Made by a program: the position numbers and the translations under genes. Below, piece by piece: positions 19,140 through 61,990 of a stretch of DNA of 64,000 nt. The DNA is from Isurus oxyrinchus (lineage: Eukaryota). Each line of letters begins with the position of its first letter. The stretch's first letter is position 1. The notes beneath the pieces were generated by a model. That model was not told the origin of the DNA and did not search any database. It was given only the letters and a program-made list of their open reading frames with translations. The DNA lies in the NCBI GenBank assembly GCA_026770705.1, contig JANJGN010000005.1, positions 185,318,001-185,382,000 on the forward strand, read 5' to 3'.

Positions 19140-19660
19140 TTTATGCACTCATGGCACTGCTGGCAAAGGCAGCATTTATTGCCCATTCCTAATTGCCCTT
19201 GAAAAGGTGCTGGTGAGCTGCCTTCTTGAACCGCTGCAGTCCGTGTGATGTAGGTACACCCACAGTGCTGCTGAGGGAGTTGGAGGATTTTGAGCCAGCA
19301 ACAGTGAAGGAACAGCGATATGGTTCCAAGTCAGGATGATGTGTGGCTGCCTGCTGCCTTTGTTCCTCTAGGTAGCAGAGGTCATGTGTTTGGCAGGCTC
19401 TGCAGGAACCTTGGCGATTTGCTGCAGTGCATCTTGTAGATGGTACACGCTGCTGCCTCATTGTGCATCAGTGGTGGAGGGTTTGAATGTCGAAGGCGGT
19501 CAGTAGGGTGCCAGTCAAGTAGGCTGATTTGTCCTGGATAGCATCGAGCTTCTTGAGTGTTGTTGGAGCTGCACTCATCCAGGCAGGTGGAGAGTATTTC
19601 ATCACACTCCTGCTTTGTGCCTTGTAGATGATGGACAGGCTTTGAGGAGTCAGGAGGTGA
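19140..19660 (-). mobile_element. LINE 3' end, CR1/L2 supergroup family B
   Basis: 'gcatttattgcccattcctaattgcccttga..ttcttgaaccgctgcagtcc' tail and CTIYKMHCS motif. Same family at 21.5-22.3, 31.4-32.0 and 61.6-62.0 kb. Confidence 0.85.
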
Positions 19661-21494: not shown

Positions 21495-22265
21495 AAATTT
21501 TATTTGTTTCTTGGATGTGGACATCACAGGCAAGGCCAGCATTTGTTGCCCATCCCCAATTGCCTTCGAGAAGGTGGTGGGTGAGGCGCCTTTTTGAACC
21601 GTTGCACTCCATATGGTGTAGGTACACCCACAGTGCTGTTAGGGAGGGATTTCCAGGATTTTGACCCAGAGATAGTGAAGGGACGGCGATATAGCTCAAA
21701 GTCAGGATGGTGGTTGAGTCGGAGGGGAGTTTTTTTTAATTCATTCATGGGATGTGGACATCGCTGGCTCGGCCAGCATTTATTTCCCTTAATTGCCCTT
21801 GAGAAAGTGATGGTGAGCTGTCTTCTTGAACTGCTGCAGTCCATGTGGTGTAGGTACACCCACAGTGCTGTTAGGGAGTGAGTTCCAAGATATGCAGGTG
21901 GTGGTGTTCCCATGTGTCCACTGCCCTTATCCTTCTTGCTGGTATAGGGTTTGGAAGGCGCTGTCAAAGGAGCCTTGGTAAGTTGCTGCAGAGCATCTTG
22001 TAGATGGTACATAATGCAACCACTGTGCATTGGAGGTGGGGGAACTGAATATTGAAGGTGATTGATGGGATGCCAATCAAGTGGGCTGCCTTGTCTTGGA
22101 TGGCGTGGAGCTTCTTGAGTGTTGTTGGAGCTGCGCTCATCCAGGCAAGTGGGGAGTATTCCATCACACTCCTCACTTGTACCTTGGAGGTGGTGGACAG
22201 GCTTTGGGAGGAGTCAGGAGGTGAGTGGCTCGCTGCGGGATTCCCAGCCTCTGCCCTGCTCTTGC
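21495..22265 (-). mobile_element. Two adjacent family B LINE 3' ends
   Basis: Tail repeated at ~21495-21720 and ~21735-22265. ORF 21964..22176 reads RSVMEYSPLAWMSAAPTTLKKL..QDKAAHLIG. Confidence 0.85.
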
Positions 22266-31399: not shown

Positions 31400-31985
31400 A
31401 AATTTACATTCGTTCAAGGGGTTCGTGGGAGTTGCTGGCTAGGCCAACATTTATTGCCCATCCCTAATTGCCCTTGAGAAGGTGGTGGTCTTGAGCCGCT
31501 GCAGTCCATGTGGTGTAGGTACACCCACAGTGCTGTTAGGGAGGGAGTTCCAGGTTTTTGACCCAGTGACAGTGAAGGAACAGCGATTTATTTCCGAGTC
31601 AGGATGGTGAGTGGCTTGGAGGGGAACTTGCAGACGGTGGTGCTCCCATGTGTCTGCTGCCCTTGTCTTTCTAGAGGACATGGGTTTCGAAAGAGCTGTT
31701 AAATGAGCTTTGTTGAGTTGCTGCAGTGCATCTTGTAGATGGTACACACTGCTGTTACTGGAGGGAGTGGATGTTTAAGGTTGTGGATGTGGTGCCAATC
31801 AAGCGGGGCTGCTTTGTCCTGGGTGGTGTCGAGCTTCTTGAGTGTTGTTGGAGCTGTACTCATCCAGGCAAGTGGAGAGTATTCCATCACACTCCTGACT
31901 TCTGCCTTGTAGAGATGGTGGACAGGCTTTGTAGAGTGAGGAGGTGAGTTACTCTCTGTAGAATTCCCAGACTCTGGCCTCTGCA
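31400..31985 (-). mobile_element. Family B LINE 3' end
   Basis: ORF 31699..31986 reads YKAEVRSVMEYSPLAWMSTAPTTLKKLDTTQDKAA. Confidence 0.85.
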
Positions 31986-39975: not shown

Positions 39976-40714
39976 TTAGAATTTTTCAGGACAGAAGGAG
40001 GCCACTCAGCCCATTGAGTCTGTGCCCGACCAGAAGATTCCGACCCTGGTTCTCTTATAAATGATCTGAAACCTGTGTCTTCTGGTCATTGGCCACCTGA
40101 CAGTGAAAACATTTTCCCACTCATTTATCAAAACTCCTTGCAACTCTGAGCACCTTATATTATAAATCTCCCTCTAAACCTTCTCTGCTCTAAGGAGAGC
40201 AATCCCAGCAATCCACATCACTGAAGCCCCTCAATGGTACCAACCTTGAGGACGTTCGCTGACATGAGGCTCCACAAATGTTGTCGGTCGTCTGAGCCAC
40301 TGGATTGTGGTTTCAATGATATAGGAAGACACTCCAGGGAAGTGTTGAGGTACAGGTAAGTGCCACTGCCTTGATCACATGCTGAATTGAGCCCTATCTG
40401 CCCATTCTAAAGGCTCAGTTGGATATCAAACCTCCCACGACGTTACTGAACGAGGGCAAAATTCTCCTGGTGTCCCGACCAACATTCTGCCTTCACCTCA
40501 AATCACAAAGAACAAATGAGCTGCTAATTCCTCTCATTCCTTGCCTACATCTCAACAGTTAGTGCACACCAAAGTAAGTCATTTAATATGAAGCACGAAA
40601 TGAAATTTTCCGGCCGACATGATAAGACACTAAAGCAAGTAAGCCTTTCCACTACAAAAACAGAATTACCTGGAAAAACTCAGCAGGTCTGGCAGCTTCG
40701 GCGGAGAAGAAAAG

Positions 40715-40753
40715 AGTTGACATTTCGAGTCCTCATGACCCTTCGACAGAACT
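40715..40753 (-). ncRNA. Hammerhead-like motif (CUGUCGA core)
   Basis: Minus strand reads AGUU CUGUCGA A GGGUC AUGAG GACUC GAA AUGU C AACU. Confidence 0.55.
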
Positions 40754-41277
40754 TGAGTGAATCCAAGGAAGGGGTGAAATATAAGCTGATTTAAGGTGTT
40801 GGGGGGGGGGGTGGTGGGTTGGGTGGGGGGAGAGAAGTGGAGGGGGGGTGGTGTGGTTGTAGGGACAAACAAGCAGTGATAGAAGCAGATCATCAAAAGA
40901 TGTCACAGACAACAGAACAAAAGAACACATAGGTGTTAAAGTTGGTAATATTACCTAAACGAATGTGCTAATTAAGAATGGACGGTAGGGCACTCAAGGT
41001 ATAGCTCTAGTGGGGGTGGGGGGATCATAAAAGATTTAAAAATAATGGAAATAGGTGGGAAAAGAAAAATCTATATAATTTATTGGAAAAAACAAAAGGA
41101 AGGGGGAAACAGAAAGGGTGTGGGGATGGAGGAGGGAGTTCAGGACCTAAAGTTGTTGAATTCAATATTCAGTCCGGAAGGCTGTAAAGTGCCTAGTCGG
41201 AAGATGAGGTGCTGTTCCACCAGTTTGCGTTGGGCTTCACTGGAACAATGCAGCAAACCCTTTCTTGGATTCACTCA

Positions 41278-41316
41278 AGTTCTGTCGAAGGGTCATGAGG
41301 ACTCGAAACGTCAACT
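41278..41316 (+). ncRNA. Hammerhead-like motif (CUGUCGA core)
   Basis: AGUU CUGUCGA A GGGUC AUGAG GACUC GAA ACGU C AACU. Confidence 0.62.
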
Positions 41317-44099
41317 CTTTTCTTCTCCGCCAATGCTGCCAGACCTGCTGAGTTTTTCCAGGTAATTCTGTTTTTGTTTTGGATTTCCAGCATCCGCAGT
41401 TTTTTTATTTTAAGCCTTTCCACTAGATTGGTGTACCTTTCACCTATTCAGCACCTTACTGTTTGAGATGCTGAATCCACATTAAATAGCTGGATTACCA
41501 GCAAACCTCCTCTTGCCCGTATTACATTTAAACAAATGTATCAGTTGCCTGACACTAAAGAATTTTGTGGAATTTTGGGGTTCTTGCCAACAGCCACTGG
41601 ACACCAGAACCTGAATGAGATTACGGCTCAGACCCCAATCTTGCAGATGGCCAGCATTGAATGGCATGTGCTATATTTACAGCTGCCAATCAGATGTCAC
41701 TGAGGAATGCAGAGTGTAAACTAGGAAGTGTAAGTTAGATTGTTTAATTCAATATAAAATCATGCACAGAATGAGAAATTAAGAGTTGGGAATAAAGACG
41801 TGAATAAGAAAGAGAGAGATAAAAGAGAGAAAGAAAGTATAAAAAAATTACTTTAACTATTTCTTTTTCAATCTCCAACTATAATTAAAATCTTAAGGAA
41901 CGTGACTCCACACTTGTGAATTTCATTTTCAGTACTAGAAAGGTTGTTTGACAGTGGTTAAGACTTAACATGCCTTTAAAATAGTCGCTTACATTTGAAT
42001 GGGCTAGCCCTACTTTTTTCTGGCATTTTGAATGGCTAACCAGGGGGTAAGTACCAGAATTTCACCCCTTCCATGCATATGAATGCTGAATCTCTCAGCG
42101 AGATACTGGTGTGGTAAAGCTTGTGGAGGATGAGGGCAAATTGGCAGCAACTTCCTGACTCCCACCTTCAACTGAACATGTGTGGACACACGGTAGCTGC
42201 TGTTGAATGTACTCCATAGTCCTGGCAAGGCTGACAGCCTGACCATGATGTGCAAAATTCTGACTGTTGGATTGTGCCAATGAAGTGCCAATGCTGTTAT
42301 GGTAAACAATGCCACGTGTCCCTTATTTACATTCCTGTTAACCTGAATTTTAAATTGATTGCCATCACAGTGTCCCTTGCTCATCTTTTGTGTGCGCAGG
42401 TCCTAACTAAACAGGTTGTACCCCCTCCATTCAATGTGAAAAAAATGCTTCAAATGTTACTTTTTTGTGGTATGGAGCAGGAGCACATAAACATTTTGGT
42501 TTGTATATCGCATTGGATGCCTTCTCTCTGTCATTTGGCTTTGCCAATCACAAAGCCAAAGAGCAGAGGATTCCGTGGTTATCCATACTGAGTATAATTT
42601 ACACAAGCAATTGAGAGGGAAACACTAAGGACTGGGGAGGGAGGGTCTTAAAAACCCAAGGGGAGCAGCTAGATAAGCACATGAAGGGGTAAGGAGGAAG
42701 AACCATGTGCCGGGAGGGTGAGATAAAGTAGGATCAAAAAGGGCTCGTGTGGATCTTAAATGGACAAGTTGGGCCGAATGGTTTTATTCCGTGCTGTGCA
42801 TTTGATTTAATTCTAGGTAATTGGTCATGCTCAAAGCCAGCATTGGGACTCCAACAAGTTGCAAAGCTTTGGCTTCAGGGAGATCCCTTCACTCTTTTGT
42901 CACTAGATGAAGTTCCATTTCTCTATAATTAACAGAGAACATATCAAAGCAATCTCTAGAAACTGGGTGCTTTGTCCTCTGTAAGCACCGATGCTTAATA
43001 CAATGTTCGATTGATATCCTGGGTCCTTCACTCAATTACCTTCAGGTGTTGAGGAAGAAATTTCACAGGAGCTTTATCCACTCAGAAGTTTTACCTGTGG
43101 CTGTTCACCTTCCTCAGGAGATTAAATAAAGTGGAGAGAGCCCATGACAGTGCAAATTGTACAAGGTCTGTTGAGAGTTGAATGAGCTCAGAGGGCCAAA
43201 GGGTATTTTCCATGTCCCTACTTTATGACCTTAATAATAATTTTATGATGTTTCAGTCCGGTTTGGCTCATAACTTTCGCAAAATACCCAACGGGCTCAA
43301 GGAGGAGCAGAGGTGGTGGGGGAAAGCAGATTTTACAGTCTTACACACACAAAAAAAAAATCCTCTGTTTTTTGCAGACTTAATGGTCACTCTGGGACCT
43401 ATTTCCTGCTCTCGGTTAACTTTACCAGAAAGTTAGATATAAAGGTGTGCGAAACCCTTAAAAAATAACAACTGCAAATTGATGTCAGTGCTTTTTTCTT
43501 AAATAAAAGAGTTACTTCTGGTCTTTGAGGGTGACAAAGTAAGTGGATTAACCCATGTGTTTTCAGCACACCGATTTATACTCCCCACACAGTGGACCAG
43601 CCAATGAAATGGAAGAAGCAATAATCTTCAGAAACAATTGAAAACTACAATTAGGAGGAATTTAAACAGTTGAAATGGCACAGAGGGCAACTGTTGAGAA
43701 AGAAAAGTAGTCAGGATGATTATGCAGTGTTATGGATAAGAATGGTAGCTTTGTTGCTGAGGCACTTGATTCGCTACTTCCAGAATCTGGGAGATGGGGG
43801 AACCATGCTCGTGGCCAACTCTCTGGAGAAATCGATATGGTTAAGGAGGGAGTGCCAGAGCCAGCCATCAGTGTGCTAGCTATGGTCAACTTCCCTGCAA
43901 ACCCACAGCCCAAGTTAGTCTGGGGTCATTAGAATCACAGTGGGCTCTCCGTGAAAACTGGCTGCTCCCTAGCATCCTTAACATTCCACTTTTGCAAGAA
44001 CCTACCTCTGTTCCATGTGGAAGCCTCGCTTCCTGCCACCCCAGGAGTTGGCAGGGAACACAACCCGGCTGACTCCGTGTGCCCCGCAGCCATATCATG

Positions 44100-44717
44100 C
44101 TCAAATGAGCGTTAGGTGGCTCTAGGCGGGGTCTCCTGCCCTCACTTGGGAGGAAGTCCCGTCCTAGAGAGCTGTCAGCCAATCAGATTGGCTGGAAGTT
44201 CTCCAGCCCCTGAAGAAGAAATGCAGGGGGATGCCTGAGACTAAGTCCGGGCACCAGAGGCCCAGGTAAGTTCAAGGGGTCCGGAGCAGGGAGGGTAGGG
44301 AAGGGCTGGGGCGTGAAGAGGGCAATCGGTGCCTCGAGGGGAGGCTGGTGAGTGTCCAAAGGCCATCGGACTTTAAGGGGAGCGCGGGGGGGGTGGGGCG
44401 GGTGGGGAAGGCAAAGTCAGGCGGGGCTTCTGATGAAGGTGTCACCCACCCTTCCTGCCCGAAATGTAACTCTGTTGGTTTTCAGCCTTACCCCGTGCAA
44501 GTTCAATCCTCCCGCTAGCCTACAGATTTGAGGCTGTTGGGAAATGGCTCTTAAGGGCCTCAGTTGAGGCAAGGGCGGGCTTTCTATCCATGGCCTTGCC
44601 TGCCTCAGTGTAAAATCGCAGCGTGGGTGGGAACCCAGAGGGAATCCCGCCCCTTCAATTTCACACCCCCCTCCCCCGTCTAAAACCCGCCGGAGGGGGG
44701 GGCGTAAAATTCTGGCG
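44100..44717. mobile_element. GC-rich MITE-like element (family C)
   Basis: 'gaggaagtcccg..gagagctgtcagccaatcagattggctgg'; ends 'gtaaaattctggc'. Related to 58450-58925 and 63540-64000. Confidence 0.55.
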
Positions 44718-44909
44718 CCGGTTTCAACTACATGCCAGTGATAGAGAGCTATAATTTCAGATCCCCCGTGGCAAGTTGCTACCCTCACTGCCTTGCAAAC
44801 TACATTAAATTCTAGTTACACAGAAACATTCCTGTGATTTTTCCCTGTATTGCTATTAACCAGGCCATTAAAAGAATATATTATCAGAGGTCAAACAAAG
44901 TCATTTAAA

Positions 44910-45285
44910 GAAATAACTTGCATTTATATAGTGCCTTTCATTGCCTTAGGATGTCCCGAAGTGCTTTATAGCCCATGAAAAGCTTTTCAAAGTGTAGTTA
45001 CTATGGTAACAGGGGAAATGTGACAGCCAACTGGCAACGTCTTACAAAGAGCAACGTGATTATGACCACATAATCTGTCCTTGTGATGCTGGTTGAGGGA
45101 TAATGTTGGGAGAACTCCCCTGCTCTCCTTTAACAGTACCATGTGATCTTTTACACCCAAGAAGGCAGTTGGGGCCATTCACCCAACAAATGGGTACCTC
45201 CAACTGTGCAGCTCTCCCTCACTGCTGCACTGAGAGTGTCAGCCTAAATGTTCTGACTTCAACATAACAGTCCTACCGACTAAGC
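44910..45285 (-). mobile_element. DeuSINE/SacSINE1-like SINE
   Basis: Tail 'aacttgcatttatatagtgcctttca' and core 'acctccaactgtgcagctctccctcact'. Confidence 0.72.
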
Positions 45286-45342
45286 CCTATGTAAAGCCTG
45301 TCAAAAGTCTTATCTCTCACACTGTGGCATCTAGTTTATTAT

Positions 45343-45964
45343 GGGCAGAATCTTCGGCTCAGTGAGCGGGGGTGGGGCCCGGCTGCTGAAGCGTAAAATG
45401 ACACGCGGTGATGTCAGGCGTGCGTCATTCAGGTTTTCAGTTCGGCAGGTGAACACCCAAGTCAGCTGCCGAACTGTCAAAGGCCTATTAAGGCCATTTA
45501 AAAACTAACTGAGACACTTAACAGAGCTGTCTGTCCAAACTTAAGGTTGGGGGGGGGGCAGGCAAAGAGACCAGGCGGCCTTTGCATTTATCATGAAACC
45601 TCATCCACGGGCGGGATGAGGTTTCACAAAGTGTTTATAAATTGAGTAAAAATTTTCATTAAAGTGCATTAACATGTCCCAGTTCGCGTGACAGTTTCAC
45701 ATGAGGCAACTCTGTGCCTCGGGGAGATTTCTTATGCACGCAAAAGAGCGCAGGCCCCCGACTGAGAGAAACCCCCCACCACTACCCACCCCACCAGCCC
45801 CGCCCCCCCCCCCCGCCCACATGGGGAACGCTCAGTGCTTCCGGGTGCGCGTCACGCTGGGCAGGCCTGAACTGGACCGCCCACCTGAAATGGCGGCGCC
45901 CAGCCAATCACGGGTGGCGATCCCTGCACAGCACCGCCCCCACCGACAGGGAGAAAATTCTCCC
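45343..45964. mobile_element. Harbinger-type MITE family A
   Basis: TIRs GGGCAGAATCTT and AAAATTCTCCC; reverse-complement homolog of 1-638. Confidence 0.78.
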
Positions 45965-47844
45965 CTGTGAGTCGCTCCAATGCTTTTCTGTATTGGCTTT
46001 CTTGGTAAAGTATACCTTGCGTTTCTCATTCTTTACGTAAAGGCTTTTTTTTAATGATATCTCTTCCTTGATCTACTGTTTATGTTCAGGATTTGTCTTA
46101 CTTCTAACATTTAATTGTTTACAGGTAGAAAAGCCTTCCTTGCTCGAAACGTTTACTCTGTCTTTCTCTCCACAGCTGCTGTCGGACCTGCTGAGTTCTT
46201 TCCGGTAATTTTAGTTTTTTCTTTCAAAGAAACAGTGAGCTATGATTCTGTGGACTATCAAAGAAAAAAATCATCTAGCCCACTCTTTGAAAATGAAGAA
46301 AATATTGCCCACTTTCCCAAAGAAATCCCTAGTAGCTCCTTTACAGTGCTCTAAACAAATATGAAACAGAGCCACAGGAATCAATCAACCCGTGTCAGGG
46401 TAATCAAATTTCATAAGTAGAATATTATTGCTCCAATTGCTGTCGCATTTGATTTCATTTAGTTGGTTAATTCTATTCTCTTGTGTTCTTGGTTAGAGAA
46501 TGACTTTTCACTCAGATAATCTGTGAAGTATTTGAAATCTCGAGCAGTTGAAGGAAAATCGTTTTTTACATAAGCAACATCACTCACTGCTCACCGTAAG
46601 CTGTATTAAGATCTTTTCTGTGTAAGCCTTGCAGAAGCGGCCCTATTAACAGTAGGGATGCGGGGCTGTTTTTTTGGCTCCTTTGGCTGGTCAAGGGAAA
46701 CGCCAGATTGGTCAGAGAATTCAAACATTCCCAGTTGCAGATTGGTGAAAAGAGTCCTTGGCAAGGAAACATGAAATAGCTCATAGAACAAAATCGTTTA
46801 CTTTTTGCAACTGTGTGCTAGATGGCCTACATCTTGCACTACAATTCCAGTTGCATGTTTCTCTTTCCTCACGCAGTTTTCCGGGACATGTAAAGTGCCG
46901 CATTGTCTGTAAAGCCCTTTGAGATGTCCTGTGCTTGTGGAAGACACCTACAGTGCAAGTCTTTCCATTTTGTCTTTCTAATGCACCCTGGGTTACTGTA
47001 CTTTGAGCACTGGACAACCTGAAATCTTTCGAAAGGAAATTATTCTTTACAATTGCGTTTGATCTTGGCTTCTGCTCTAACCAGTAAGGGTGGCTGGATA
47101 GAGATGGTGATTGTGAGCCTTGGCTGATTCTGATGCTAGTTATCAAACCCTGACTGGTAACTCAGCAGCTAACTAACGATGAGTGCTGCTCTAACAATAC
47201 TCAGGAAGCTCAACACCATGCATGGCAAAGCAGCCTGATCGATCGGCCAACCCCCCACCCCCCCCACCCCCCAACAACAACCTTAAACATTCACTCCCTC
47301 CACCACTGGCACACAATGGCTACAGTGCGGACCATATACAGGATGTGCTGCAGCAACTCACTCCTTTCAGGTTTCAGAGAGCAATGGGGCCACAAAAGAA
47401 GTGAGATTTCGGAGACCAGATGGGCCATCAAAGCAGCGAAGTTTTTGAAAGCAGTGGGGCTTTTATGCAGTCTGTGGGTTCAGAGTTACGCTCCGAAACA
47501 AAAATTGAGGTGTGACATCAGAGCAGTGTTGTAAGTTAACTGGCTGGTGAGTATTGCCACTTCGGGACTAAGTCCAAACAACTGGCAGATTAAAAACTGT
47601 AAAAAACAAATCAGTATTAATAATAACTAACAAGTAAATAGATGGTGAGTCTTACCTTATTTTCAAGCAAGGTTTATTACAATATGTAAGGTGTGTTAAG
47701 TATTAGTAGGATTTATCAGTATTAGTTAGGTTGATTAATGGTAGTAAGGTTTATTAATAGCAATAGGGTTTATTAGTATTGGTACGGTTTATTAGTGTTG
47801 GTAAGGCTTATTAGCAATAGCAAGGTTAACTAATAAATAGAGAA

Positions 47845-48820
47845 ATGACAGGGCATCTTGTGCTATGTGGGAACTCCAGGATGCTACCTGTGTCCTGGAT
47901 AACCATTTGTGCAGGAAGTGGCAGCAGTTGCAGTAGCTTGAGCTCCAGGTTTTGGAACTTAAGCAACAGCTGATGTGAGTGTGGTGCTTGAGACTTTCTG
48001 GATACTGCATTTATAGATGAGATCACCCTGCAGCTTAAGACTATGCAGGGAGAGAGTGAAAGGGTGACCACCAGACAATGATAAAGAAACAGGCAGGTAG
48101 TGTAGGAGTCCCCTGAGTACATCCCACTCTCCAACCAGTATTCAGTTCTGAATACTGATGAGAGTGATGGTTCATGTGGGGAGTGCAACCAGAACCAAGG
48201 TACCACAGGTGGCTCAGCTGTACAGGGGGATACAAGGAAAACTGGAAGAGCAATAGTGATTGGTGATTCAATAGTTAGAGGAATCGAGAGGCATTTCCGT
48301 GGCCATGGACACGAATCCAGGATGCTGTGCTGCTTCCCTGGTGCCAGGGTCAAGGGTATCACTGAGCAGCCGCAAAGCACCCTGAAGGTAGATGGCAAAC
48401 AGCCAGCAATCATGGTCCACATTGATACAAACAACATAGGCAGAAAGAAACATGTGGTACTACAGTCAGAATTTAGGGAGCTAGGTAGGAAATTAGCAAG
48501 CAGGGCCTCAAAAGTATCAATCTCCGGATCACTCCCAGTGCCATCTACAAGTGAGTATAGAAATCGGAGAATAAAGCAGATGAATGCATGGCTGGAAAGA
48601 TGGTGCAGGAGGGAGAGCTTTAGATTCTTGGGGCATTGGGACTAGCTCTGGGGGAGATGGAACCTGTACTGGCTGGACAGATTGCATCTAAATAGAGCCA
48701 GAACTGAGTTCTTTGCAGGATGATTTGCTAGTTTTTTTTATTCATTCATGGGATGTGGGCTTTGCTGGCTGGGCCAGTATTTATTGGGGAGTGTTATCAA
48801 GAAGGGTTTCAACTAACTCA
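47845..48820 (+). pseudogene. CR1 ORF1: Cys-rich motif, coiled coil and SGNH/GDSL esterase (disrupted)
   Basis: CAMWELQDATCVLDNHLCRK..LELQVLEL. ORF 48256..48645 reads IGDSIVRG..CCFPGARV..VHIDTNNIG..NAWLERWCRRESFRFLGHW, followed by a D-x-LHLN motif. Confidence 0.85.
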
Positions 48821-49645
48821 GCAGGGGTGTGGGAACCAGGAGATAATATCAGAGAGGAATATCAAGGTGCACAGAATACTGGGAGAGATAGATTGCACTA
48901 GAATAAGGAATAGTAAGCGAATAGGTGGGTCAGAGTTAGGGAGAAAATAATAAAGTCTAAATCAGCATTACTACACATGTATGTGAATGCACAGAGTTTG
49001 GCAAATAAGATTGTGAATTACAGGTGCAAATTGCCATAAGGTTTTCGCTATAACAGAAACCTGGCTCAAAGAAAGGCAGGATTGTGTGTTAAATATTCCT
49101 GGATACAAGGTGTTCAGGAAAGATCAGAAACAGGGGGAGGATTGGCAGTATTGACTAAGGGGAGCATTGCAGTGCTGTAGAGAGAGGATGTTCCAGAGGG
49201 GTCAAGGACAGAATCTATTTGGCTAGAACTAAGGAACAAAAAAGGTGCAATTACATTGTTCAATGTAGTCTATAGGCCATCAATTAGTGGGAAGACGTAG
49301 AGGAACAAATCTGCAAGGAAATTACAGAGAGTAGTTATAATGGGGGATTTTAATTATCCAAACATAGACTGGGAAAGTAGTAGTGTAAAGGGCAGAGAGG
49401 GACAAGACTTCCTAGAGCGTGTTCAGGAGAATTTTCTAAGGCAGTATGTTTCCAGTCCAATGAGAGGGGATTTACTGCTAGACCTGGTTCTTGGGAATGA
49501 GGTGGGCTAAGTGGATCAGGTGTCAGCAGGAGAACAATTAGGGGACAGTGATCATTGTGTCATAAGGTTTAGGCAGTCTATGGAACAGAACAGTCCAGAA
49601 CAGTAAGAAAAATTAACTGGGGAAACCAACTTCAATGAGGTAAGA

Positions 49646-49928
49646 TAAAAGCAAAAAACTGCAGATGCTGGAAATCCAAAACAAAAATAAAAATAAAAAT
49701 ACCTGGAAAAACTCAGCAGGTCTGGCAGCATCTGCGGAGAGGAACACAGTTAATGTTTCAAGTCTGTATGCCTCTTCAACAGAACTAAGTAAAAATAGAA
49801 GAGAATATTTCACCTCTTTTCTATTTTTACTTAGTTCTGTTGAAGAGTCATACGGACTCGAAATGTTAACTGTGCTCCTCTCCGCAGATGCTACCAGACC
49901 TGCTGAGTTTTTCCAGGTATTTTTATTT
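49646..49928. mobile_element. Palindromic Penelope-terminus cassette inserted in CR1 ORF2, 15-bp TSD
   Basis: Two inverted PLE termini meet at ~49805-49812. TSD ttcaatgaggtaaga at 49631-49645 and 49929-49943. Confidence 0.9.
49833..49871 (+). ncRNA. Hammerhead-like motif (CUGUUGA core)
   Basis: AGUU CUGUUGA A GAGUC AUACG GACUC GAA AUGU U AACU. A more decayed mirror copy lies at 49748-49786 (-). Confidence 0.55.
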
Positions 49929-51654
49929 TTCAATGAGGTAAGAATGGACCTGGGCCAAATAAATTGAAGTTAAAGGTTGGCAGGAGAACAATAGGCTACC
50001 TTCAAGGAACAGATAGTTCAGACACAGCCTATGTATATTCCCTCGAAAGGGAAAGTTAGGGCAAACAAATCCAGAGCTCCCCAAATGACAATAGAGATAG
50101 GATTAAGATAAAGAAGAAAAAGTGCGCTTATAACAGATGTCAGGTAGAAACTACAATTGAAACCAGGCTGAATATAGAAGGTTCAGCGGGAGGTGAAAAA
50201 GCAAATATTGGAAGCAAAAAGTAAGTGTGAAGAGACTGGCAGCTAACATAAAAAGGAATCCCAAAGTCTTCCATTGGCATATAAATAGTAAAAGCATGGT
50301 AAAATGAAGCAAAGAGCTGATTAGGGACCCAAAAGGGGTTTTACACATGGAGGCAGGGTATTAAATTAATACTTTGCATTTATCTCTACAGGCAAAAAGA
50401 TGCTACGCAGGCTATGGTGAAAGACAAGGAGATTCGGTCACTAGAAGAGTTTAAAATTGATAAGGAGTAGGCAATGGATAGCTTGTCTGCACTTAAAGTT
50501 GATAAGCCACCAGGATTGGATGAGATACACCCAAGGATACTGAAGGAAGTGAGAATAGAAATTGCAGAGATACTGGCCATAATTTCTCAGTCTTCCTTAG
50601 ACTCAGGGGTGGTGCCAGAGGACTGGAGAATTGCAAATGTTACACACTTGTTCAAAATAGGATGTAAAGATGAGCCCAGCAACTACAAGCCAGTCAGTTT
50701 AATTTTGGTAGCAGGGAAACTTCTAGAAACAATAATTTGGGGCAAGATTAATAGTCACATGAACAAATGTGGGTTAATTAAGGAAAGCCAGCATGGATTT
50801 CTTAAGGAAAAATCATGTTGAACTGACATGCTGGAGATTTTTGAAGAGAGAACAGAGAGGGATGATGAGTCCAACATTGTTGATGTGGTCTACATGGACT
50901 ACCAAAACACATTTGATGCGGTGCCATACAACAGACTTGTGAGCAAAGTTATAGCTCATGGAATAAAAGGGACAGTAGCAACATGAATATGAAATGTGCT
51001 GACAGGAAACACAGAGTAGTAGTTAATGGATGTTTTTCGGGCTGGAGGAAGGTTTATAGTGGAGTTCCTCAGGGATCAGTATTGGCACTCTTTCTTTTCC
51101 TGATATATATTAATGACGTAGACCTAAGGCTCAATTTCAAAATTTGCAGATGATATGAACCTTGGAAACATTGTGAGCTGTGAGAATTTCAAAATGAAAT
51201 AGACAATTTGGTGGAATGGGCGGACATGTGGCAGATGAAGTTCAATGTGGAGAATTATGAAGTAACTCATTGTGGTAGAAAGAACATGGAGAAACAATAT
51301 AGAATAAAGGGTACAATTCTAAAGGGGGTGCAAGAGCAGAGGGACCTGGGTATACATGTTCATAAATCAAGTCTGTGATGACATCTGAAGTTTTACAGAG
51401 TGCACACACCTGTCAAGGTTTCATAATACGTCTAGGTGATTTCCTGTGGCATTGCGCACAATGAGTCAGAGGGTACAATATTCTGTAAGAATAAGGTTGA
51501 TTAACGTAGTGTGATGGGGAATGTTGTGTTCCATTGTTCTGTGTTTGACTATGTGAGTTTATTGCTATGATCTGGTTAGGGATCAGTAACGTTTTGTTTG
51601 AAGTAGACGAAGTGTGGAATCCTCGTTACCCACTAGGAGAATAAAGATACACGA

Positions 51655-54000
51655 TTCTCTGCTAGGCCTGGTACTGTGCAATAAGATAGGTTCAATTGAT
51701 AACCATAGTGAAGGCACACCTAGGTGGCAGTGAGCATAATATGATTGAATTTTACCTTCAGCTTGAGGGAGGTAAGAGTGGGTATGAGTATTTTAAACTT
51801 AAATAAGGGCTATTATGAGGGCATGAAAGCAGAGCCAGCTAACACAAACTAGCAAATGGGGTTAAGGGATAGGTCAACAGAGATGCAGTAGCAGAGTTTT
51901 AAAGGGATATTTCAGAATATACAGAATAGATACATTCCAATGAAAAAGAAAAATTCGAAGGGGAGGACCCACCATCTGTGGTTAACTAAAATATTTAAAG
52001 AAAGTATCAAACTTAAAGAAAAATCATGTAATTGCACAAAAACAGGCAGAATATGAAGATCAGCAAAGAATGACTAAAAGATTAATGAGAGAAAAATTAA
52101 GCATGAGAGGAAACTGGCTAGAGATACAAAAGTGGTTAGTAAGAGTTTCTATAGTTACTTAAATAAGAAAAGAGTTTTTTAAAAAAAGTGAGTTTTGGTT
52201 CTATAGAGAGTCCGTCTGAGGAATTAATAATGGAAAATACGGAAGTGACAGATGAATTGAACGGGTATTTTACATCAGTCTTCATTATGGAGGATACAAG
52301 GAACATCCCAGAAATAGCTGTAAATCAGGAAAGAAGAGAGAGAGGATCTCAGGAAAATTACAATCACAAGAGAAGTGGCATAGAGCAAATTGTTGGGGCT
52401 GTGGGCTGACAAAACCACGGGTCCTGATGGATTTCATCCTAGGGTCTTGAAAGAAGTGGCTAGTGAGATAGTTGATGCATTGGTTTTAACTTTCCAAAAT
52501 TCCCTGGATTTGGGGAAGGTTCCATTTGATTGGAAAAAAGTAAATATAACTCCTTTATTCAACAAGTAGGGGTGGGATGGGGGGGAGAGAGAAAGTGGAG
52601 AACCATGGCCAGTTAGTTTAACATCTGCCATAGGGAAAATGTTTGAAACAATTATTAAAGATGTTATTGCAGGGCATTTAGAAAAATACAAGGTAATCAG
52701 GCAGAGTCAAAATGGTTTTGTGAAAGGGAAATCATATTTAACCAATTGATGGGAGTTCTTTGAAGGAGTCACCGGTGCTGTGGATAAAGGAGAACCGGTG
52801 GATGTGCTGTACTTAGATTTCCAGAAGCATTTGATAAGGTGCCACATCAAAGGTTATTGCAGAAATTAAAAGCTCATGGTGTAAGGGTAACATAATGGCA
52901 TGGATAGAAAATTGGCTAGCTAACAGGAAGCAGAGAGCTGGCATAAATGAGTCATTTTCTGGTTGGCAAGATGTGGTGTGCCACAAAGATCAGTGCTGGG
53001 GCCTCAACTTTTTACAATTTATATAAATGACTTGAATGAAGGGATCAAAGGTATGGTTGCTAAATTTGCTGTTGACACAAAGATAGGTAGGAAAGTAAGT
53101 TGTGAAGAGGATATAAGGAGGCTGCAAAGGGATATAGATAGGTTAAGTGAATGGGCAAAGATCTGGCAAATGGAGTATAATGTGGGCAAATGAGAAATTG
53201 TCCATTTTGGCAGGAAGAATAAAAAAATAGCATATTTTCTAAATGATGAAAGGATGCAGAGCTCTGAGATTCAGAGGGATCTGGGTGTCCTACTGCATGA
53301 ATCACAAAAGGCTAGAATGCAGGAATAGCAAGTAATTAGGAAAGCTAATAGAATGTTATCGTTTATTGTTGGGGAATTGATTACAAAAGTTGGGAGGTTA
53401 TGTTTCAATTATCCAGCGCACTGGTGAGACCACATCTGGTATACTTCTGTACAGTATTGGTCTCCTTATTTAAGGAAGGATGTAAATGCACTGGAAGCAG
53501 TTCAGAGAAGGTTTACTAGACTAATACCAGGAATGAGCGGGTTGTCTTGTAAGGAAGTTTGGACAGGTTAGGCTTGTATCCACTGGAATTTAGAAGAGTA
53601 AGAGGCAACTTGGTTGAAACCTTTAAGATCCTGAGGGGTCTTGACAGGGTGGATGTGGAGAAGATGTTTCCTCTTGTGGGAGAATCTAGAACTGGGGTTC
53701 ACTGTTCAAAAATAAGGGGTTGGCCACTTAAGACAGTGATGAGGAAAAAAATTTTCTCAGAGAGTTGTGAGTCTTATGAACTCATTACCTCAAAAGGCAG
53801 TAGAAGCAGAGTCTTTGAATATTTTATAGCAGGGATAGATAGATTTCCCCCCTTATAAGGGGATGAAAGGTTTTTGAGGGTAGGAAGGAATGCGGAGTGA
53901 AGGTTACAATCAGATTAGCCATGGCCTTAATTCAGTGGCAGAGCCAGCTCAAGGGACTGAGTGGCCTACACCTGTTCCTAATTCGTATCTTTGAATGTTC
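51655..54000 (+). mobile_element. 5'-truncated CR1 LINE (ORF2 through 3' UTR), decayed
   Basis: GPDGFHPRVLKEVA, VLYLDFQK, GVPQRSVLGPQLFTIYINDL, KFAVDTK and DRLGLYPLEFRRVRG; 3' UTR 'gggactgagtggcctacacctgttcc'. Confidence 0.9.
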
Positions 54001-55089
54001 CTACTTTTCCACAGTTTTAAACAAACAAAATAATCTTTGCTATAAAAGTCAGAAAAGCAAAACAATCTACAATATCAATCTTATACTTCAACAGTCAGAA
54101 TTAACATGAGGCATATATGATTTAATAATCATACTCTGGTTGAGCATATCACACCGCACTTGAAATGGCAGATATGACCAAGACAGATCCCATGGATTTC
54201 TTAGCAACCCATCCAAATGCCAGTGACCACTGTGAGTTACAATATGTCATTAAAATTCTGTCTCTCTTATGAGGGATTTCAACTCCTACCTTTCAAAGAT
54301 TTAACATCTGAACTCCCTCAAAAGCTGCTCTGACTCAGACTACCTCAATGACAGTTCACCTCCTGATGGTTCAATCTCTCCTCCTAAGACTGTGTCCCAC
54401 GGGATTCACAAAGCTGCACTCTGAATCACTGACACAATGCCTGCTCTTTCACAAAATGTTAGCTTCAATAAGCTGGCACTGCCCCTTGGTGTCTCCACAT
54501 TCCAGTCTTCCCGGCTGCCTCGAGCTATAAGGGGATACCAGGGCTTCTTCTGAGCCCTAACTGCTTGGCATGGAACTAATAACCTCCTATCACCTTAGCA
54601 GCCCCCCAGGGCTCCTCTGAGCCCTCACTGCTTGGAGCCTACTAACTGCTCCTGGGGCTTCTCTGTGAGCTACAAACCACGTGAGGTCCAAACTGCAACC
54701 AACCTCCTCCCAGCAAACACATAGATAAATTGAAATCAGAGAACCTTCTTAAGCTCCATCCATCTCCACGATCACATAGCCTTTCGGGGTTTACTGAACA
54801 CTTTTAAACTAATCTAGTTCTAACTTCCAAAACAAAACATCTCTCTGAACTGCACTTCTTTGTAAGCAGTGTAGACATCACATCTCCTGTTCTCTAGCCA
54901 AGTAAGCTGACCTGCTGTTTTCTTGGCTCAATCTCTTCTATTCTGACTCCATTTAACAATCATGAGTAACCTTCTGAACTTTTCTTTCAGGTGTTCTATC
55001 AATCTCTAAAGTCCAGCATTTTAGTTACATTACCTTCCCAATAACAATCTTGCCAGGACCAAACATTACCTCAAAAATATTAACATGAA

Positions 55090-55314
55090 CCATGAATTAA
55101 ATATTTGTCACACTGTTTACTATTGATGCTTACTGTTTTTGATTGGTTAAGCCCAGGTATGGACTCAGTGAAAAGTAAACAAGTTATAGAAAAAGCTGGA
55201 AGCCAGATATGTAAGCGTGGAGCAGGCATTTTAAAGCATTGCAAATAAAACCTACTACACACATAGAAACTAGTGTCATCTTTGCCTAGCTCTGAGAGAT
55301 AAAGAATATAAAAC
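55090..55314 (+). repeat. Dispersed repeat, paralog of 36000-36231
   Basis: Same conserved blocks including AATAAA; the minus-strand ORFs here and at 36 kb share LNQS.TV.INSKQ. Confidence 0.55.
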
Positions 55315-57239
55315 AGGGAAGCTGTGAAGGCAATTGTATGATATACGCAAGACTTTAAATACTCTTTTTTACAGATATATGGAGAAGGATTTTCAAATTC
55401 CAGTGGAGTTGGGACCAAGTGTGGGTGCAATTTAAGAAAATCCCAGCCCAGAGGTCATCACTAGATTCCGATGCCTCTGGGACAATCTGAAAGTTTCAAT
55501 GTTCTGGCAGGAAGAGGGAATGGGGTACATGCATGTGGCCAATTAATGGCCCATTAATCTCCTTTGGGAGCTCATTAATGGGCCGGGAGATGGGAGCTGC
55601 AGTCTTCAACAGCAATTTTGGCAAACCCGAACAGTCTGGTGCATGTTTCTGCATAGCTGTCATGTTCACTGCAGGGCAACAGAATTTTTTTTTCAATGCT
55701 TAAAACGATAAAGTACTTGGCCATCCTGTACCTCTATCACACCTCGGATATCATACATTGTACCAATGTTTTTCCCAGTGGCCCTCCACTTTGTAGCACT
55801 TTTTCTGCTGTCCCTCTGAGGAGCTGCCTGCTCTGATCAGCGAGGCAGTGACAGGCTCAACATGGCTACCACCTGCCTTTGCCACTGGTGCCAGGCAGGC
55901 AGCTCCTGCCTCCTGGAGACACTCAGCATCACTACCTGGGTGCCAAGTTTGCCTTGTGCTCAACTAGGGCACATACCTATAAATATAGTGTTGCATGAGC
56001 AATACAGTTGAAGTGCAGGATCAGGACCCCTCACTGGGTCCCCGACCCTGCTTTGACAATCTAGTCTATGAAACCTATATCATATCTTAAAATCAAGATT
56101 TTTAATTAAGGGAACAGTTTGCAATTTGAAACAATTGCGCTGGGAAAACATCACGAGAAAGCATTCTGCAGATTTTGACATTTCTCTAAATTTCCTCTTA
56201 AATTGGTAGGTACCTTCTGCAGAGTATCCGTGACAGAAATCATTTGAATTTTTGAAAGACTGCATAGGAAACTCAAGTATACAAGCTTAGGGCCTTCTGA
56301 TGGTATTACTAAGCATTCAGAAATTTTTGCTATACACTGTAATTGTACAAATATTCCCACAACTGTCCATTAACTGGTTTGTCGTTCCCACAGAAACTGA
56401 CTTTCATGAATGTCCTTTTCATTAACAACTGGCATTTGACTTGTTAACAGGGAAAGGTATTTCATATTGATATTCCTTAAAAAAAAACATTAAAAATTTT
56501 GAAGTGAGGCTTCTGCATCTAACAAACTATCATTCGAGGCGGGTAAATGAATAATGTCCTTGCTTTCCTCTCCTGGGTTAAACCACACAAGGTTAGCACT
56601 AGAAAAAGCTTTAAAATGGCCAAAGTATTAGTATTCCTGACACCATATATTTGTGTTTTCTCAGAGCGCTGGCCACTTATCACAGTTGAGATATAATTAG
56701 TTGTGAGACTTAAAGAAAAGAACAATTGACAGCAGTCAGCTTATACCTCTTTTGATAATCGAGTGCGGATAAAAAGGAAAAATTGAAAGTGGTGTGCAGG
56801 AAAAATATTGAGTGCAATAGATGGCTGAGAGCCGGCGTGTTTGAAACATTCAACAAATCATTCAAACACTGAAATGTTCTCTTCAATTGGACAGAGAAAA
56901 AAAAACACAGAGGAGCCAGTCCATTTGCTTTGTCATTCAGCTGCAAGGAGCTGGTATCTTATCCCTCCTGGTCATCAACATATTTTAATCCCTCAGGAAT
57001 GGCAGTGGGACAATATCCACCCCCTTCAGCATTGATCTCAGCTGGGAATTTCTGCAGGTGAAGAAATATTGAGGCAGAATTTCCTAGCAACATATCGATG
57101 AGTTTAATGACACTCACCACCTTTAGTTTGTAAATCATCCAGTAACTTGTGGCGAGGAACAGGTACCTCATGAGTTGTGAGCTGCCCACCTCCCCGCGAG
57201 TTTCATGAAATCAATACATTTGTACATTGGTGACCAAGT

Positions 57240-57700
57240 AAACTTGCCACTGAAAGTTAGGCCCAGTACTTCACAGCTTAAATACGGTTTTAATGATGAG
57301 ATTTATGTTCACATAATTCTGATCAACCTCTCCAGCCCAGAAAGGGAACAATGAAAGATAATGGAGTCTCATTTCTGCAGATAGTGAATTGTCGTTACAA
57401 CACTTTTAAATTTCTCATGTTTGTGTTCTGCCTCTGTTTTCTCCCTCTCTGAATTCAATCTTCCTTTCCCTCTGTTTATTTCTCTTTCTGAACTTGATTT
57501 GTCTCTAATTCATCCAATTTCCTTCTCCGTTGTTCCTCTGTTTCTTTCACAATCCTTAAATCCCATTGATTAAGGAGATAGATAGTTGGCCCCGTCATTC
57601 ACTGAGGTTCCAGGTGCCTGTTGATCCTCGCAGTGTAGTTATCAGTTCCCTCTTCCAGCGATTTGCAGTGCAAACATTTTTTGAGCTAAAGGGCACTGGA
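57240..57700. repeat. Old interspersed repeat related to ~41700-42020 and 59170-59260
   Basis: 'tcaacctctccagcccagaaagg' (57320s) is the reverse complement of 'cctttctgggctggagaggttga' (59216-59238). Similar CT/GA-rich organisation at 41.8 kb. Confidence 0.4.
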
Positions 57701-58449
57701 TGAAATTTAAATTGTGAGATATCCCATGTGGCTCAGTCTATTTCTCAAATTTAGGTTGATCATTCTTCTAAGGAGCAAATTTTAAAGGGATATGAGGAAA
57801 GAGCACGGAATAAGACCAACTGACTAGGTCTTTCAAAGAGCTGGTATAGGTAAATTACTTCCTGTGATGTATCATTTTGTGACTGTAAGATTAACATTTA
57901 ATATTTTATTACTCACCTCACTGAGGCCATGCCTTAATCTTCTGGCTAGTCTGTAGAACATCAGTTGCTGAACTGTCTTCTTATAGGTCAACCCCTTTCT
58001 ACTCCAGGGCCATTCTTGATGTTTATCTCTAATAAATAGATTCCAAACTAGCTGGTGAAATATGAAACTTGATACAAATCCCTTTCTTGATAGTTTCTTT
58101 ATTTACAGAATGCATCAATATAAATCTCTACCTTTTACCTACTAACCTGGTATCCCAGCAGTCCCTCCTTATATGTACTCAAGATATTTAATCTATCAAT
58201 ACCCACCACCTGTTTATCCTTAACCTTAACAATACAATAATCATAATATTAACAATCTCTACTTTCTTTACAAAGCTTTTATACGTCTTTTTGAGTTGCA
58301 CATAATGGACAATTGAACAACTAATAGTCACTGAAGGGCCTCCTCCAGCTTACTCATGTCTCCACATCAGTAGGAGTTGATCTATGAGAAGACAATTCAA
58401 CAACTGATGTCCTACAGACTAGAGAGAAGGTTGACATTAAGGTACATGA

Positions 58450-58925
58450 TAGTGCAGGGATTTTACCTGGGACAGGTGGAGGACAGTGCCAGCTATGAAG
58501 CCCAGAAGTTTTCACTGCTTGGGCTGTTGATAGGTAAGATGGGAGTGGGGGATGCTCACCTCCTTTCCAGGCCCCCTGTGACCATCTTTGGGTCCCTCCC
58601 CCAAGGTCTTCCCACGTTTGCCCTCCCCCTGCCCTGTCCACCCTGACTTTCTAGCCGCCTTGTTCTCCTTGCTGGGGCCTGCCAACCTAGCCTCTGCAAG
58701 ACCCTCCCACTTACCTTCACATCCGTCTCTATTCGTGTTCATCATCAGAGACTGGGTGCAGTCCCAGCAGTGGCCACTGCTCCTGGTGGAGATGCTGGGA
58801 TCAGGGAGCGACTGACCATTTGATTGGCTGGCAGCCCTCAAAGGCGGGGCTTCCTCTCCAGATGAGAGGATAACTTGGCTCATGACAATTAATGGCCTAA
58901 AATAAAACAAAATAAAATTCAGCCC
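58450..58925. mobile_element. GC-rich MITE-like element (family C, reverse orientation)
   Basis: 'gattggctggcagccctcaaaggcggggcttcctc'; TIR-like 'gcagggatttt' and 'aaaattcagccc'. Confidence 0.5.
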
Positions 58926-59538
58926 CAGAGTGTGATGCTGGTGGAAAGTGATTTCAATTCCACACTGTTAATCTCTTCAAAAATTGTGTAAACCCTTGTG
59001 CTACATAGAAAATTATAGAAGCAAATGAGCGAAGCTGGGGTATTGGAAGGGTCCAATAAGCATTATCCTTTGGACCTAGTGTAGGAAATAGCCCAGATTC
59101 CTGTCTTGCTATCAGCAGGCACACCTCAGTGACATTAAGTTACATGACAGTGTTGTAGAATTATGAAAAAGAATCACAGGCATTTGAATGGCGCATCTGT
59201 GGTCATTCATTGTTTCCTTTCTGGGCTGGAGAGGTTGATTGGCATTGCGCCATCATAAATTTGAATTACATGCATTACACATGTTATAAGATATAGTTTG
59301 GACAATCATACACATTAGGAGCACTTCAGAGGGGTCAGGCAACATCATAATCTCTAAGATTCAATTCTAAAATATGTGCACACACACCAGCTTGTTATTC
59401 ATTGTACACAGTTAGAACATGTACATGCCATACATGTATAATATATATTACTGAAAAGAGAGGCTTGGCAACCAATCAGCACCCTTTCCCCCTGCAGTAT
59501 AAATTGTTGTGATCATTTGAAATTTGGAATTCTTGCAT

Positions 59539-59574
59539 TTGTCCTGATGAGCGCAAGATGAAAAGCTTCAGCAA
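59539..59574 (+). ncRNA. Second-family minimal hammerhead motif (decayed) at the end of a different repeat (~59460-59600)
   Basis: UUGUC-CUGAUGA-GCGCAAGAU-GAA-AAGCUU-C-AGCAA has a canonical CUGAUGA/GAAA core and palindromic AAGCUU. Stems I and II are partly decayed. Confidence 0.55.
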
Positions 59575-59611
59575 CATGTCTCCCTTTTCAGCAATATTCA
59601 AGTTTGTACTA

Positions 59612-59836
59612 AACAAAAACAGAATTACCTGGAAAAACTCAGCAGGTCTGGCAGCATCGGCGGAGAAGAAAAGAGTTGACGTTTCGAGTCCTCATGAACT
59701 AGTTCTGTCGAAGGGTCATGAGGACTCGAAACGTCAACTCTTTTCTTCTCCGCCGATGCTGCCAGACCTGCTGAGTTTTTCCAGGTAATTCTGTTTTTGT
59801 TTTGGATTTCCAGCATCCGCAGTTTTGTTTTGTTTT
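59612..59836. mobile_element. Young palindromic Penelope-terminus cassette, 17-bp TSD
   Basis: Perfect 86-bp inverted arms at 59612-59697 and 59716-59801, plus a 35-nt tail. TSD tattcaagtttgtacta at 59595-59611 and 59837-59853. Confidence 0.92.
59701..59739 (+). ncRNA. Hammerhead-like motif (CUGUCGA core)
   Basis: AGUU CUGUCGA A GGGUC AUGAG GACUC GAA ACGU C AACU, identical to 41278-41316. Confidence 0.62.
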
Positions 59837-61620: not shown

Positions 61621-61649
61621 AGCTGGGCTGCAGCTAACATCTGTTTTGA

Positions 61650-61990
61650 CATATTCATCCATGGTAGGTAGGTATCGTTGGCAAGGCCAACATTTATTGT
61701 GTATCCCTAATTGCCCTTGAGAAGGTGATAGTGAGGTGCTTTCTTGAACTGCTGCAGTCCAAGTGGTATGTAATACTATTATGAAGGTTTCATTCAGGGT
61801 GGTGTGTGACTCGGAGGGGAACTTGCAGGTGGTGGTGTTCCCAGGCATCTCTTGCCCTTGTCCTTCTGGGTGGTAGAGATTGCAGGTTTGGAAGGTGGTG
61901 TCGAAGGAGCCTTGGTGAGTTGCTGCAGTGCATCTTGTAGATGGCACACACTGCTGCTACTGTGTGTTGGTGGTGGAAGGATGGTTAACT
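61650..61990 (-). mobile_element. Family B LINE 3' end
   Basis: 'catttattgtgtatccctaattgcccttgagaaggtg', 'gctgcagtgcatcttgtagatgg'. Confidence 0.8.

Follow-up and report, generated by a model that had tools for sequence, protein, structure and literature searches.

A U at position 6 of the minimal hammerhead motif in Penelope-like retrotransposons of the shark Isurus oxyrinchus

The stretch of Isurus oxyrinchus DNA analysed here, called the window below, spans 64,000 nucleotides (NCBI GenBank assembly GCA_026770705.1, contig JANJGN010000005.1, positions 185,318,001 to 185,382,000 of the forward strand) and carries five copies of a small hammerhead motif in which the normally conserved A at position 6 of the core is replaced by U. 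We find that U6 is a fixed trait of a large repeat family, that it is derived from A6 and that it marks all younger subfamilies. The motif is of the minimal hammerhead type and lies in the pseudo-long terminal repeat (pLTR) of an autonomous, recently active Penelope-like element (PLE), and we propose, with a probability of about one half, that it acts as a slow, dimer- or protein-assisted ribozyme carrying the A6U change. Judged from its sequence, the motif descends from the minimal hammerhead of Penelope and most likely works like it. As the consensus core fails at A6 and cleavage is only predicted, we file it as a hammerhead variant.

U6 as a fixed and derived trait

All five window motifs read U at position 6, within a CUGUCGA core at 40749 (minus strand), 41282 and 59705 (plus strand) and within CUGUUGA at 49782 (minus) and 49837 (plus), which agrees in position and sequence with a preliminary description of the window that had noted these motifs in three cassettes. 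A stem-plus-core hammerhead descriptor gives five matches in the window, where 100 shuffles average 0.02 and reach at most 1, and stem I forms four of its four pairs in each motif; Rfam gave no match in the window at the gathering score. As the five motifs belong to three insertions, each lying between flanking duplications of 15-17 bp, they are not five independent cases.

Sequence patterns were counted over the whole 4.98 Gb assembly. The exact 39-mer of positions 59701-59739 is present in 52,044 copies, and in one 35-base context U6 is found in 72,119 matches against 1,668 with any other base; among the first 100 of these 1,668 listed, a hand count gave 7 A6 and 89 C6. The earlier claim that the change is a family trait and not random decay is borne out by these counts, which together with the tree described below led us to reject an origin of U6 by random decay or by CpG decay. 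The idea that CUGUUGA is solely a decayed CUGUCGA was also rejected, this core being in part an older subfamily.

Hand counts of the first 100 matches listed gave about 58 A6, 39 U6 and 3 other bases for the older loop (6,854 matches) and 85 A6 for a more distant family with an AGGUC/GACCU stem (279 matches), and A6 stands in 21 of the 23 copies of the next-oldest family. When 235 copies were sorted by flanking features, with 11 rows unclassified, copies lay at a median distance from their group's majority of 11.5% and 10.6% in the two oldest A6 groups, 4.9% in A6 U7, 5.3% and 6.5% in the U6 U7 groups and 1.1% in the youngest, values that are biased low, as many of the rows were chosen by exact motif match. 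By age the series runs A6 A7, A6 U7, U6 U7, U6 C7. A midpoint-rooted tree built from the flanks of 73 long copies, with the motif excluded, is comb-like and places the 12 A6 rows on one side of a branch with support 100/99, such that a single change between A and U suffices. The direction from A to U is taken from the presence of A6 in the older families and from the hammerhead consensus.

The motif and the element that carries it

At the core, C3, U4, G5, N7, G8 and A9, G12, A13 and A14, the A15.1-U16.1 pair and H17 are all present, and the replacement of A6 by U is the only departure from the consensus. Helix II has G10.1-C11.1 and an extra base after A9; a putative helix I of 4 bp, in a type I layout, is without covariation and with a C-A mismatch in the A6 A7 subfamily; and a palindrome at 15.1-16.1 replaces helix III. 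The motif at 59701-59739 combines a stem I of 4 bp, a stem II of 5 bp with the loop AUGAG, an extra A after A9 and the palindrome ACGU, and its predicted cut falls after 59735, the position given for this copy before.

Not all that had been said of the stems holds for every copy. Stem II pairing is kept in four of the five window copies, but is broken by one G-A mismatch in the copy at 49786 (GAGGC/GACUU), and the alternation of GGGUC and GAGUC, which had been taken as variation that preserves pairing, is one-sided (G-U for A-U) and not covariation. The loop AUACA of the 49786 copy is seen, but is likely CpG decay of AUACG. Stem III is indeed the palindrome ACGU in every subfamily majority, but in the window only in two of five copies (41278 and 59701), the other three reading AUGU or ACAU, as expected from CpG decay. 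The motif of the 18 kb copy (18023-18061) retains A6 as described, but it reads CUGAUGU, with U at position 9, and having lost A9 it is not a canonical core.

At the locus L077 (G000:C1) three identical U6 motifs are spaced 3,353 and 3,340 bases apart. An open frame of 926 amino acids in the second unit has RVT_1 (7e-08) and GIY-YIG (9e-04) domains, the latter scoring 19.9, below the Pfam cut-off of 22.6, with its motif visible in the translation; the first unit has a frameshift near its start. An intact frame of reverse transcriptase (RT) and GIY-YIG endonuclease between U6 pLTRs indicates that autonomous PLEs carry U6. Tandem and inverted pLTRs, 5' truncation and a one-sided tail, all traits of endonuclease-bearing PLEs, are present. 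In many insertions two copies stand head to head, one with a short tail and the other with a long one, enclosed by duplications of 15-17 bp, and the three window cassettes are head-to-head pLTR pairs with one tail of each kind; this layout has been described for endonuclease-bearing PLEs (bioRxiv 2021.04.23.441226; here and below, sources are cited for those parts of their text that were available). The RT-endonuclease linker of the 926-residue frame reads by eye Cys-x4-Cys-x2-Cys, and a Zn-finger-like linker motif is a feature of Neptune/Nematis (bioRxiv 2021.04.23.441226); we regard "Neptune-type" as a lead only. The repeat does not have the short non-coding tandem units of non-LTR retrozymes, as its units are of 3.35 kb and coding and the window copies are inverted. 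The earlier assignment to a Penelope-type minimal hammerhead in recently mobile elements is supported. A fold-back cassette was considered as the active dimer and rejected, since its complementary arms would fold into a long hairpin.

Contigs close to the young motif come from runs of four organism labels, and one X18 contig record matches 59701-59781 without a difference, which hints that the young family is shared among relatives.

Some further features border the motif. In older subfamilies a pyrimidine tract, CAG and then ATG lie directly 3' of it in an acceptor-like arrangement, and another acceptor-like tract runs up to stem I, a feature also reported for Drosophila Penelope. In young subfamilies CCG ATG follows the motif, with a stop after 10 codons (window 59740-59790; L077:4100-4240), and the first Met of the long frame is at L077:4234. 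No GT-AG joint was found among the assembled contigs compared.

Copy ends, sequence change after A6U and the role of the motif

If cut RNA were the template, the cut site would be the expected first position of copies. A base other than C precedes this site in 1,046 matches of the youngest family, and 30 of them, when viewed, comprised 11 true junctions, 18 point changes and 1 deletion; roughly 400 copies are estimated to start at the cut, compared with more than 70,000, a rate no higher than the background (of 39 unbiased copies, 8 have their end within positions 6-30 upstream). The older A6/early-U6 group gave 57 against 4,991, with 8 junctions among 30 viewed. As an excess is lacking in this older group too, the test does not separate U6 from its ancestors, and by analogy with the anole system considered below uncut RNA was likely the template both before and after A6U.

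Short copies begin 31-40 bases upstream of the cut, at stem I, in 37 of 70 copies with a mapped end, a sample enriched for copies reaching that far upstream; in the unbiased subset 9 of 23 start at 31-40, 8 at 6-30 and 6 at 41-70 (13 rows with negative ends, mostly old copies poorly matching the reference, were dropped). Transcription may start at stem I. The older flank matches the initiator pattern, YYANWYY. Penelope carries an internal promoter (PMC2377424). In the youngest branch a second GGACUCGAAA, a copy of the stem II 3' strand and core, is found just upstream of stem I (L077:4040-4063 and many young copies) in a 25-base zone that differs at almost every subfamily step; it was set aside as an alternative cut, as the same start cluster is present in subfamilies without it.

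To follow change after A6U, majority sequences of six successive U6 groups were compared, covering 60 of the 61 non-A6 tree rows, with one long-branch row omitted. Among the core and stem positions only 1 of 31 changed, from A-U to G-U with the pair kept, against 4 of 7 catalysis-tolerant positions (7, 17 and two loop bases among the changes; Fisher p=0.002) and 46 of 197 upstream positions with 8 gaps (p=0.008), p-values that overstate independence, as four of the five motif changes fall within one step. Position 17 remained non-G throughout the U6 groups. The preliminary description had left the choice between an active variant and a weakened fold with another role; this was the right question, and the changes after A6U lean towards a core that is still selected. 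They also bear on the view that A6U abolished function neutrally and spread by hitch-hiking with a successful master element, the rest of the motif having had too little time to decay. At the upstream rate about 7 changes are predicted for the 31 motif positions, and one is observed. We therefore hold neutral loss to be improbable, even with its one origin on the flank tree, with hammerheads dispensable in some Penelope-like clades (bioRxiv 2021.04.23.441226) and with all counts coming from one lineage in one genome.

In 50 aligned natural motifs 99.6% of stem II cells are paired, with two-sided changes at 2 of the 5 pairs, a signal for which 16 of the 18 underlying rows were chosen by a pattern that fixes the stem and 2 came through the downstream block alone. 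For stem I the paired share is 85%, and a single cell is two-sided. Covariation across copies, brought up in the preliminary description, is seen in stem II and only across families, with one event per pair, as one change between two families; it is not seen in stem I.

Position 6 changed again in part of the family. CUGCUGA (C6) is found in 1,271 exact copies, compared with 143 for any change at a stem U in this background. At the 30 C6 loci viewed (L011-L015, L295-L319) the flanks are of several types, and the three C6 rows in the flank tree form no single clade, which points to more than one branch, or to exchange. Among the core bases, of which the others were not counted one by one, only position 6 was seen changed in amplified branches. 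It is conceivable, though we think it rather unlikely, that shark PLEs weaken their own ribozyme time and again through position 6, by A to U here and by a later C in a branch, since cutting at the RNA 5' end would destroy the capped, copy-competent template. If so, the dated series from A6 A7 to U6 C7 would amount to a natural test of how cleavage rate relates to amplification, and in the dimer bound by protein a "fixed" core base would be free. The arms of some single insertions (L318, L305, L300, L315, L107/L108) differ at subfamily-variable positions, for example with C6 on one arm and U6 on the other; two distinct RNA molecules may have been copied at the two nicks.

The predicted folds bear on a further view, that U6 is fully active and compensated, position 6 being dispensable in the dimeric or protein-bound state and the loss of A6 removing a misfold between core and cut site. 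Energy models give competing folds for every version of the motif. For a natural A6 C7 copy (L287) they predict -11.3 kcal/mol, the core being locked in a 5-bp helix with the cut site, compared with -7.3 for U6 C7; with A6 and either U7 or C7, U4-G8 is predicted to pair with ACGU and the cut-site strand, and with U6 C7 the same helix is about 4 kcal/mol weaker. Such a relief of misfolding, and the occurrence of A, U and C at position 6 in amplified branches, would fit compensation, but the U6 U7 forms have a predicted misfold of their own, no compensating core change is found and no rescue of the CUGA mutants is described in the available text of PMC9901934 beyond the swap mentioned below. We doubt strongly that U6 is fully active. 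Since natural A6 in the youngest background is predicted to lock the core, the plain U6A revertant that had been suggested for cleavage assays would be a weak control.

Several observations weigh against the slow ribozyme that we favour. The 62 bases downstream of the motif, which are not part of the ribozyme, changed at only 8 positions, with none in the last three steps, and being nearly as conserved they indicate that conservation is not special to the ribozyme. The limits of the p-values and of the stem signals given above, the absence of useful covariation in stem I and the lack of an excess of cut-site starts in U6 or older subfamilies belong here as well. A direct-tandem partner was found for none of the window copies, the five 39-mers fold no better than shuffles (z from -0.57 to 0.58), and 59701-59836, with a folding z of 1.09, gives no support either. 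In published experiments with 0.3 mM Mg, A6C brings the rate of a consensus ribozyme down to 3.55e-6 per minute (PMC7151607), and a full mutational scan found low activity for every single mutant of CUGA, with none rescued except by a C3-G8 swap (PMC9901934). Insertion in vitro needs no cleavage, as cleavage-dead anole mutants insert normally (PMC11167929), and Naiad elements amplify without any hammerhead (bioRxiv 2021.04.23.441226). A pyrimidine at position 6 is nonetheless known from a natural A6C hammerhead that cleaves slowly, with a rate below 0.1 per minute (PMC3088659), and well in the presence of manganese (PMC7151607), and the anole Penelope hammerhead cleaves only with its protein (PMC11167929).

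Much of this would equally suit a motif that no longer cuts, the first ~100 bases of the RNA (or DNA) being kept for another job, such as binding the RT-endonuclease, placing the two priming sites or serving as an internal promoter. The nearly frozen downstream bases, the short copies starting at stem I as from a transcription start, the promoter within Penelope (PMC2377424), the normal insertion of cleavage-dead anole mutants (PMC11167929) and the weakness of position-6 mutants (PMC7151607, PMC9901934) can all be read this way. Against such a role stand the changes that fall on the catalysis-tolerant positions (7, 17, the loop and a wobble), with 17 staying non-G, and the fact that position 6 is the one core base seen to change in amplified branches, the others not having been counted singly; we consider this role possible, yet less probable than a slow ribozyme.

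For the slow ribozyme we propose the following course. A6 would have turned to U in the master lineage, with the other core bases and both stems kept. A pLTR promoter would start the RNA near the A of stem I, placing the motif at the RNA 5' end and again at each tandem junction. The element protein would nick both target strands and copy uncut RNA from two tail sites, while two motifs would pair via ACGU to form an active core. Cutting would be a slow side step that frees units from read-through RNA or removes the capped end, and being a side step it would allow a weaker core to be tolerated or mildly favoured.

Related systems and other features of the window

The motif may be compared with the minimal hammerheads in pLTRs of metazoan PLEs (Cervera and De la Pena 2014, PMC4209133). 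Shared with them are the type I layout with what would be a helix I of 4 bp, the extra base between 9 and 10.1, G10.1-C11.1, the palindrome at 15.2-16.2 in the absence of helix III and the location in the pLTR, as well as close opposite-strand pairs and mostly truncated copies, whereas the dominant family here has U6 and a helix II of 5 bp. The one core change named there is U3-A8 in Schistosoma; sharks are not named in the available text parts or in two supplementary files, and the CUGU passages there are not at the core. The phage Bcep176 A6C hammerhead (Perreault 2011, PMC3088659; Naghdi 2020, PMC7151607) is likewise a natural case of a pyrimidine at position 6, as is the C6 branch here. 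It is a single phage ribozyme with measured slow, manganese-favoured cleavage, whereas U6 occurs in a retroelement lineage of more than 70,000 copies, lacks helix III and is known from sequence alone.

The anole Poseidon PAc element (Frangieh 2024, PMC11167929) has the same RT and GIY-YIG, tandem pLTRs and two tail ends, and it primes on both strands from an uncut RNA template, the latter two features being what we propose for the shark element. PAc belongs to the Penelope/Poseidon clade and its frame starts inside the hammerhead, whereas the frame here begins downstream of a hammerhead with a U6 core and includes a Cys-rich linker as in Neptune/Nematis. Non-LTR retrozymes (bioRxiv 10.64898/2026.07.22.740005) also carry a type I hammerhead related to that of Penelope pLTRs, but in short non-coding tandem repeats, whereas here it lies at the ends of coding elements that are inverted in the window. 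A literature search by title and start of abstract found no A6U hammerhead in a PLE or in a shark; Lunse et al. 2016, on PLE hammerhead dimers, was outside its scope and may contain position-6 variants.

The features of the window are collected in Table 1, together with repeats and frames that lie beside the cassettes.

Table 1. Hammerhead motifs, insertions and neighbouring features of the window
Feature	Positions	Strand	Remarks
Older A6 subfamily, 5'-truncated copy with pLTR and a broken frame of linker and endonuclease	16985..18125	+	groups with A6 rows in the flank tree
Other interspersed repeat family	19145..22206		
Frame like the 3' end of a long interspersed nuclear element (LINE)	21524..22213		
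Other interspersed repeat family	31420..31929		
One insertion: 3' piece of a minus-strand element and inverted pLTR with long tail	40655..41410	both	15-bp duplication at 40640 and 41411; minus-strand piece has the end of the GIY-YIG frame, the 3' untranslated part and a pLTR with short tail
Hammerhead motif U6 C7, stem III palindrome decayed to AUGU	40715..40753	-	
Last 40 codons of the GIY-YIG endonuclease frame	41138..41260	-	from translation; C-terminus same as in the 926-residue frame of L077
Hammerhead motif U6 C7	41278..41316	+	identical to 59701-59739
Separate hammerhead-like motif, probably of an older Penelope family	44426..44480	+	canonical CUGAUGA, long degraded stem II region, GAAA core strand
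Old truncated pLTR piece of the same superfamily	46143..46219	+	begins inside the stem II 3' strand
Frame of 179 amino acids	48106..48645	+	by eye presumably like the esterase-like ORF1 of CR1/L2-type LINEs
Fold-back insertion, older U6 U7 subfamily, loop AUACG	49646..49930	both	116-nt inverted repeat (93%); duplication of 15 bp at 49631 and 49929
Decayed hammerhead motif U6 U7, stem II G-A mismatch, stem III ACAU	49748..49786	-	
Hammerhead motif U6 U7, stem III decayed to AUGU	49833..49871	+	
One fold-back insertion	59612..59836	both	87-nt inverted repeat (100%); flanked by a duplication at 59595 and 59837; minus-strand copy (59611-59697) with short tail ends inside stem II; head-to-head plus-strand copy with long tail begins at the first base of stem I
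Minimal type I hammerhead motif, youngest subfamily (U6 C7)	59701..59739	+	52,044 exact genome copies
Other interspersed repeat family	61645..61976		

The role of the hammerhead in endonuclease-bearing PLEs has been stated to be unclear (PMC11167929; bioRxiv 2021.04.23.441226). The family described here holds ordered natural versions of one motif from before and after the loss of a core base, the versions after the loss being the most numerous among the counted contexts, and more than 70,000 motifs in this genome would escape any search built on CUGANGA. Measurements on these versions would reveal either that a hammerhead acting as a dimer or with help from protein can do without A6, or that its fold persists with no catalysis.

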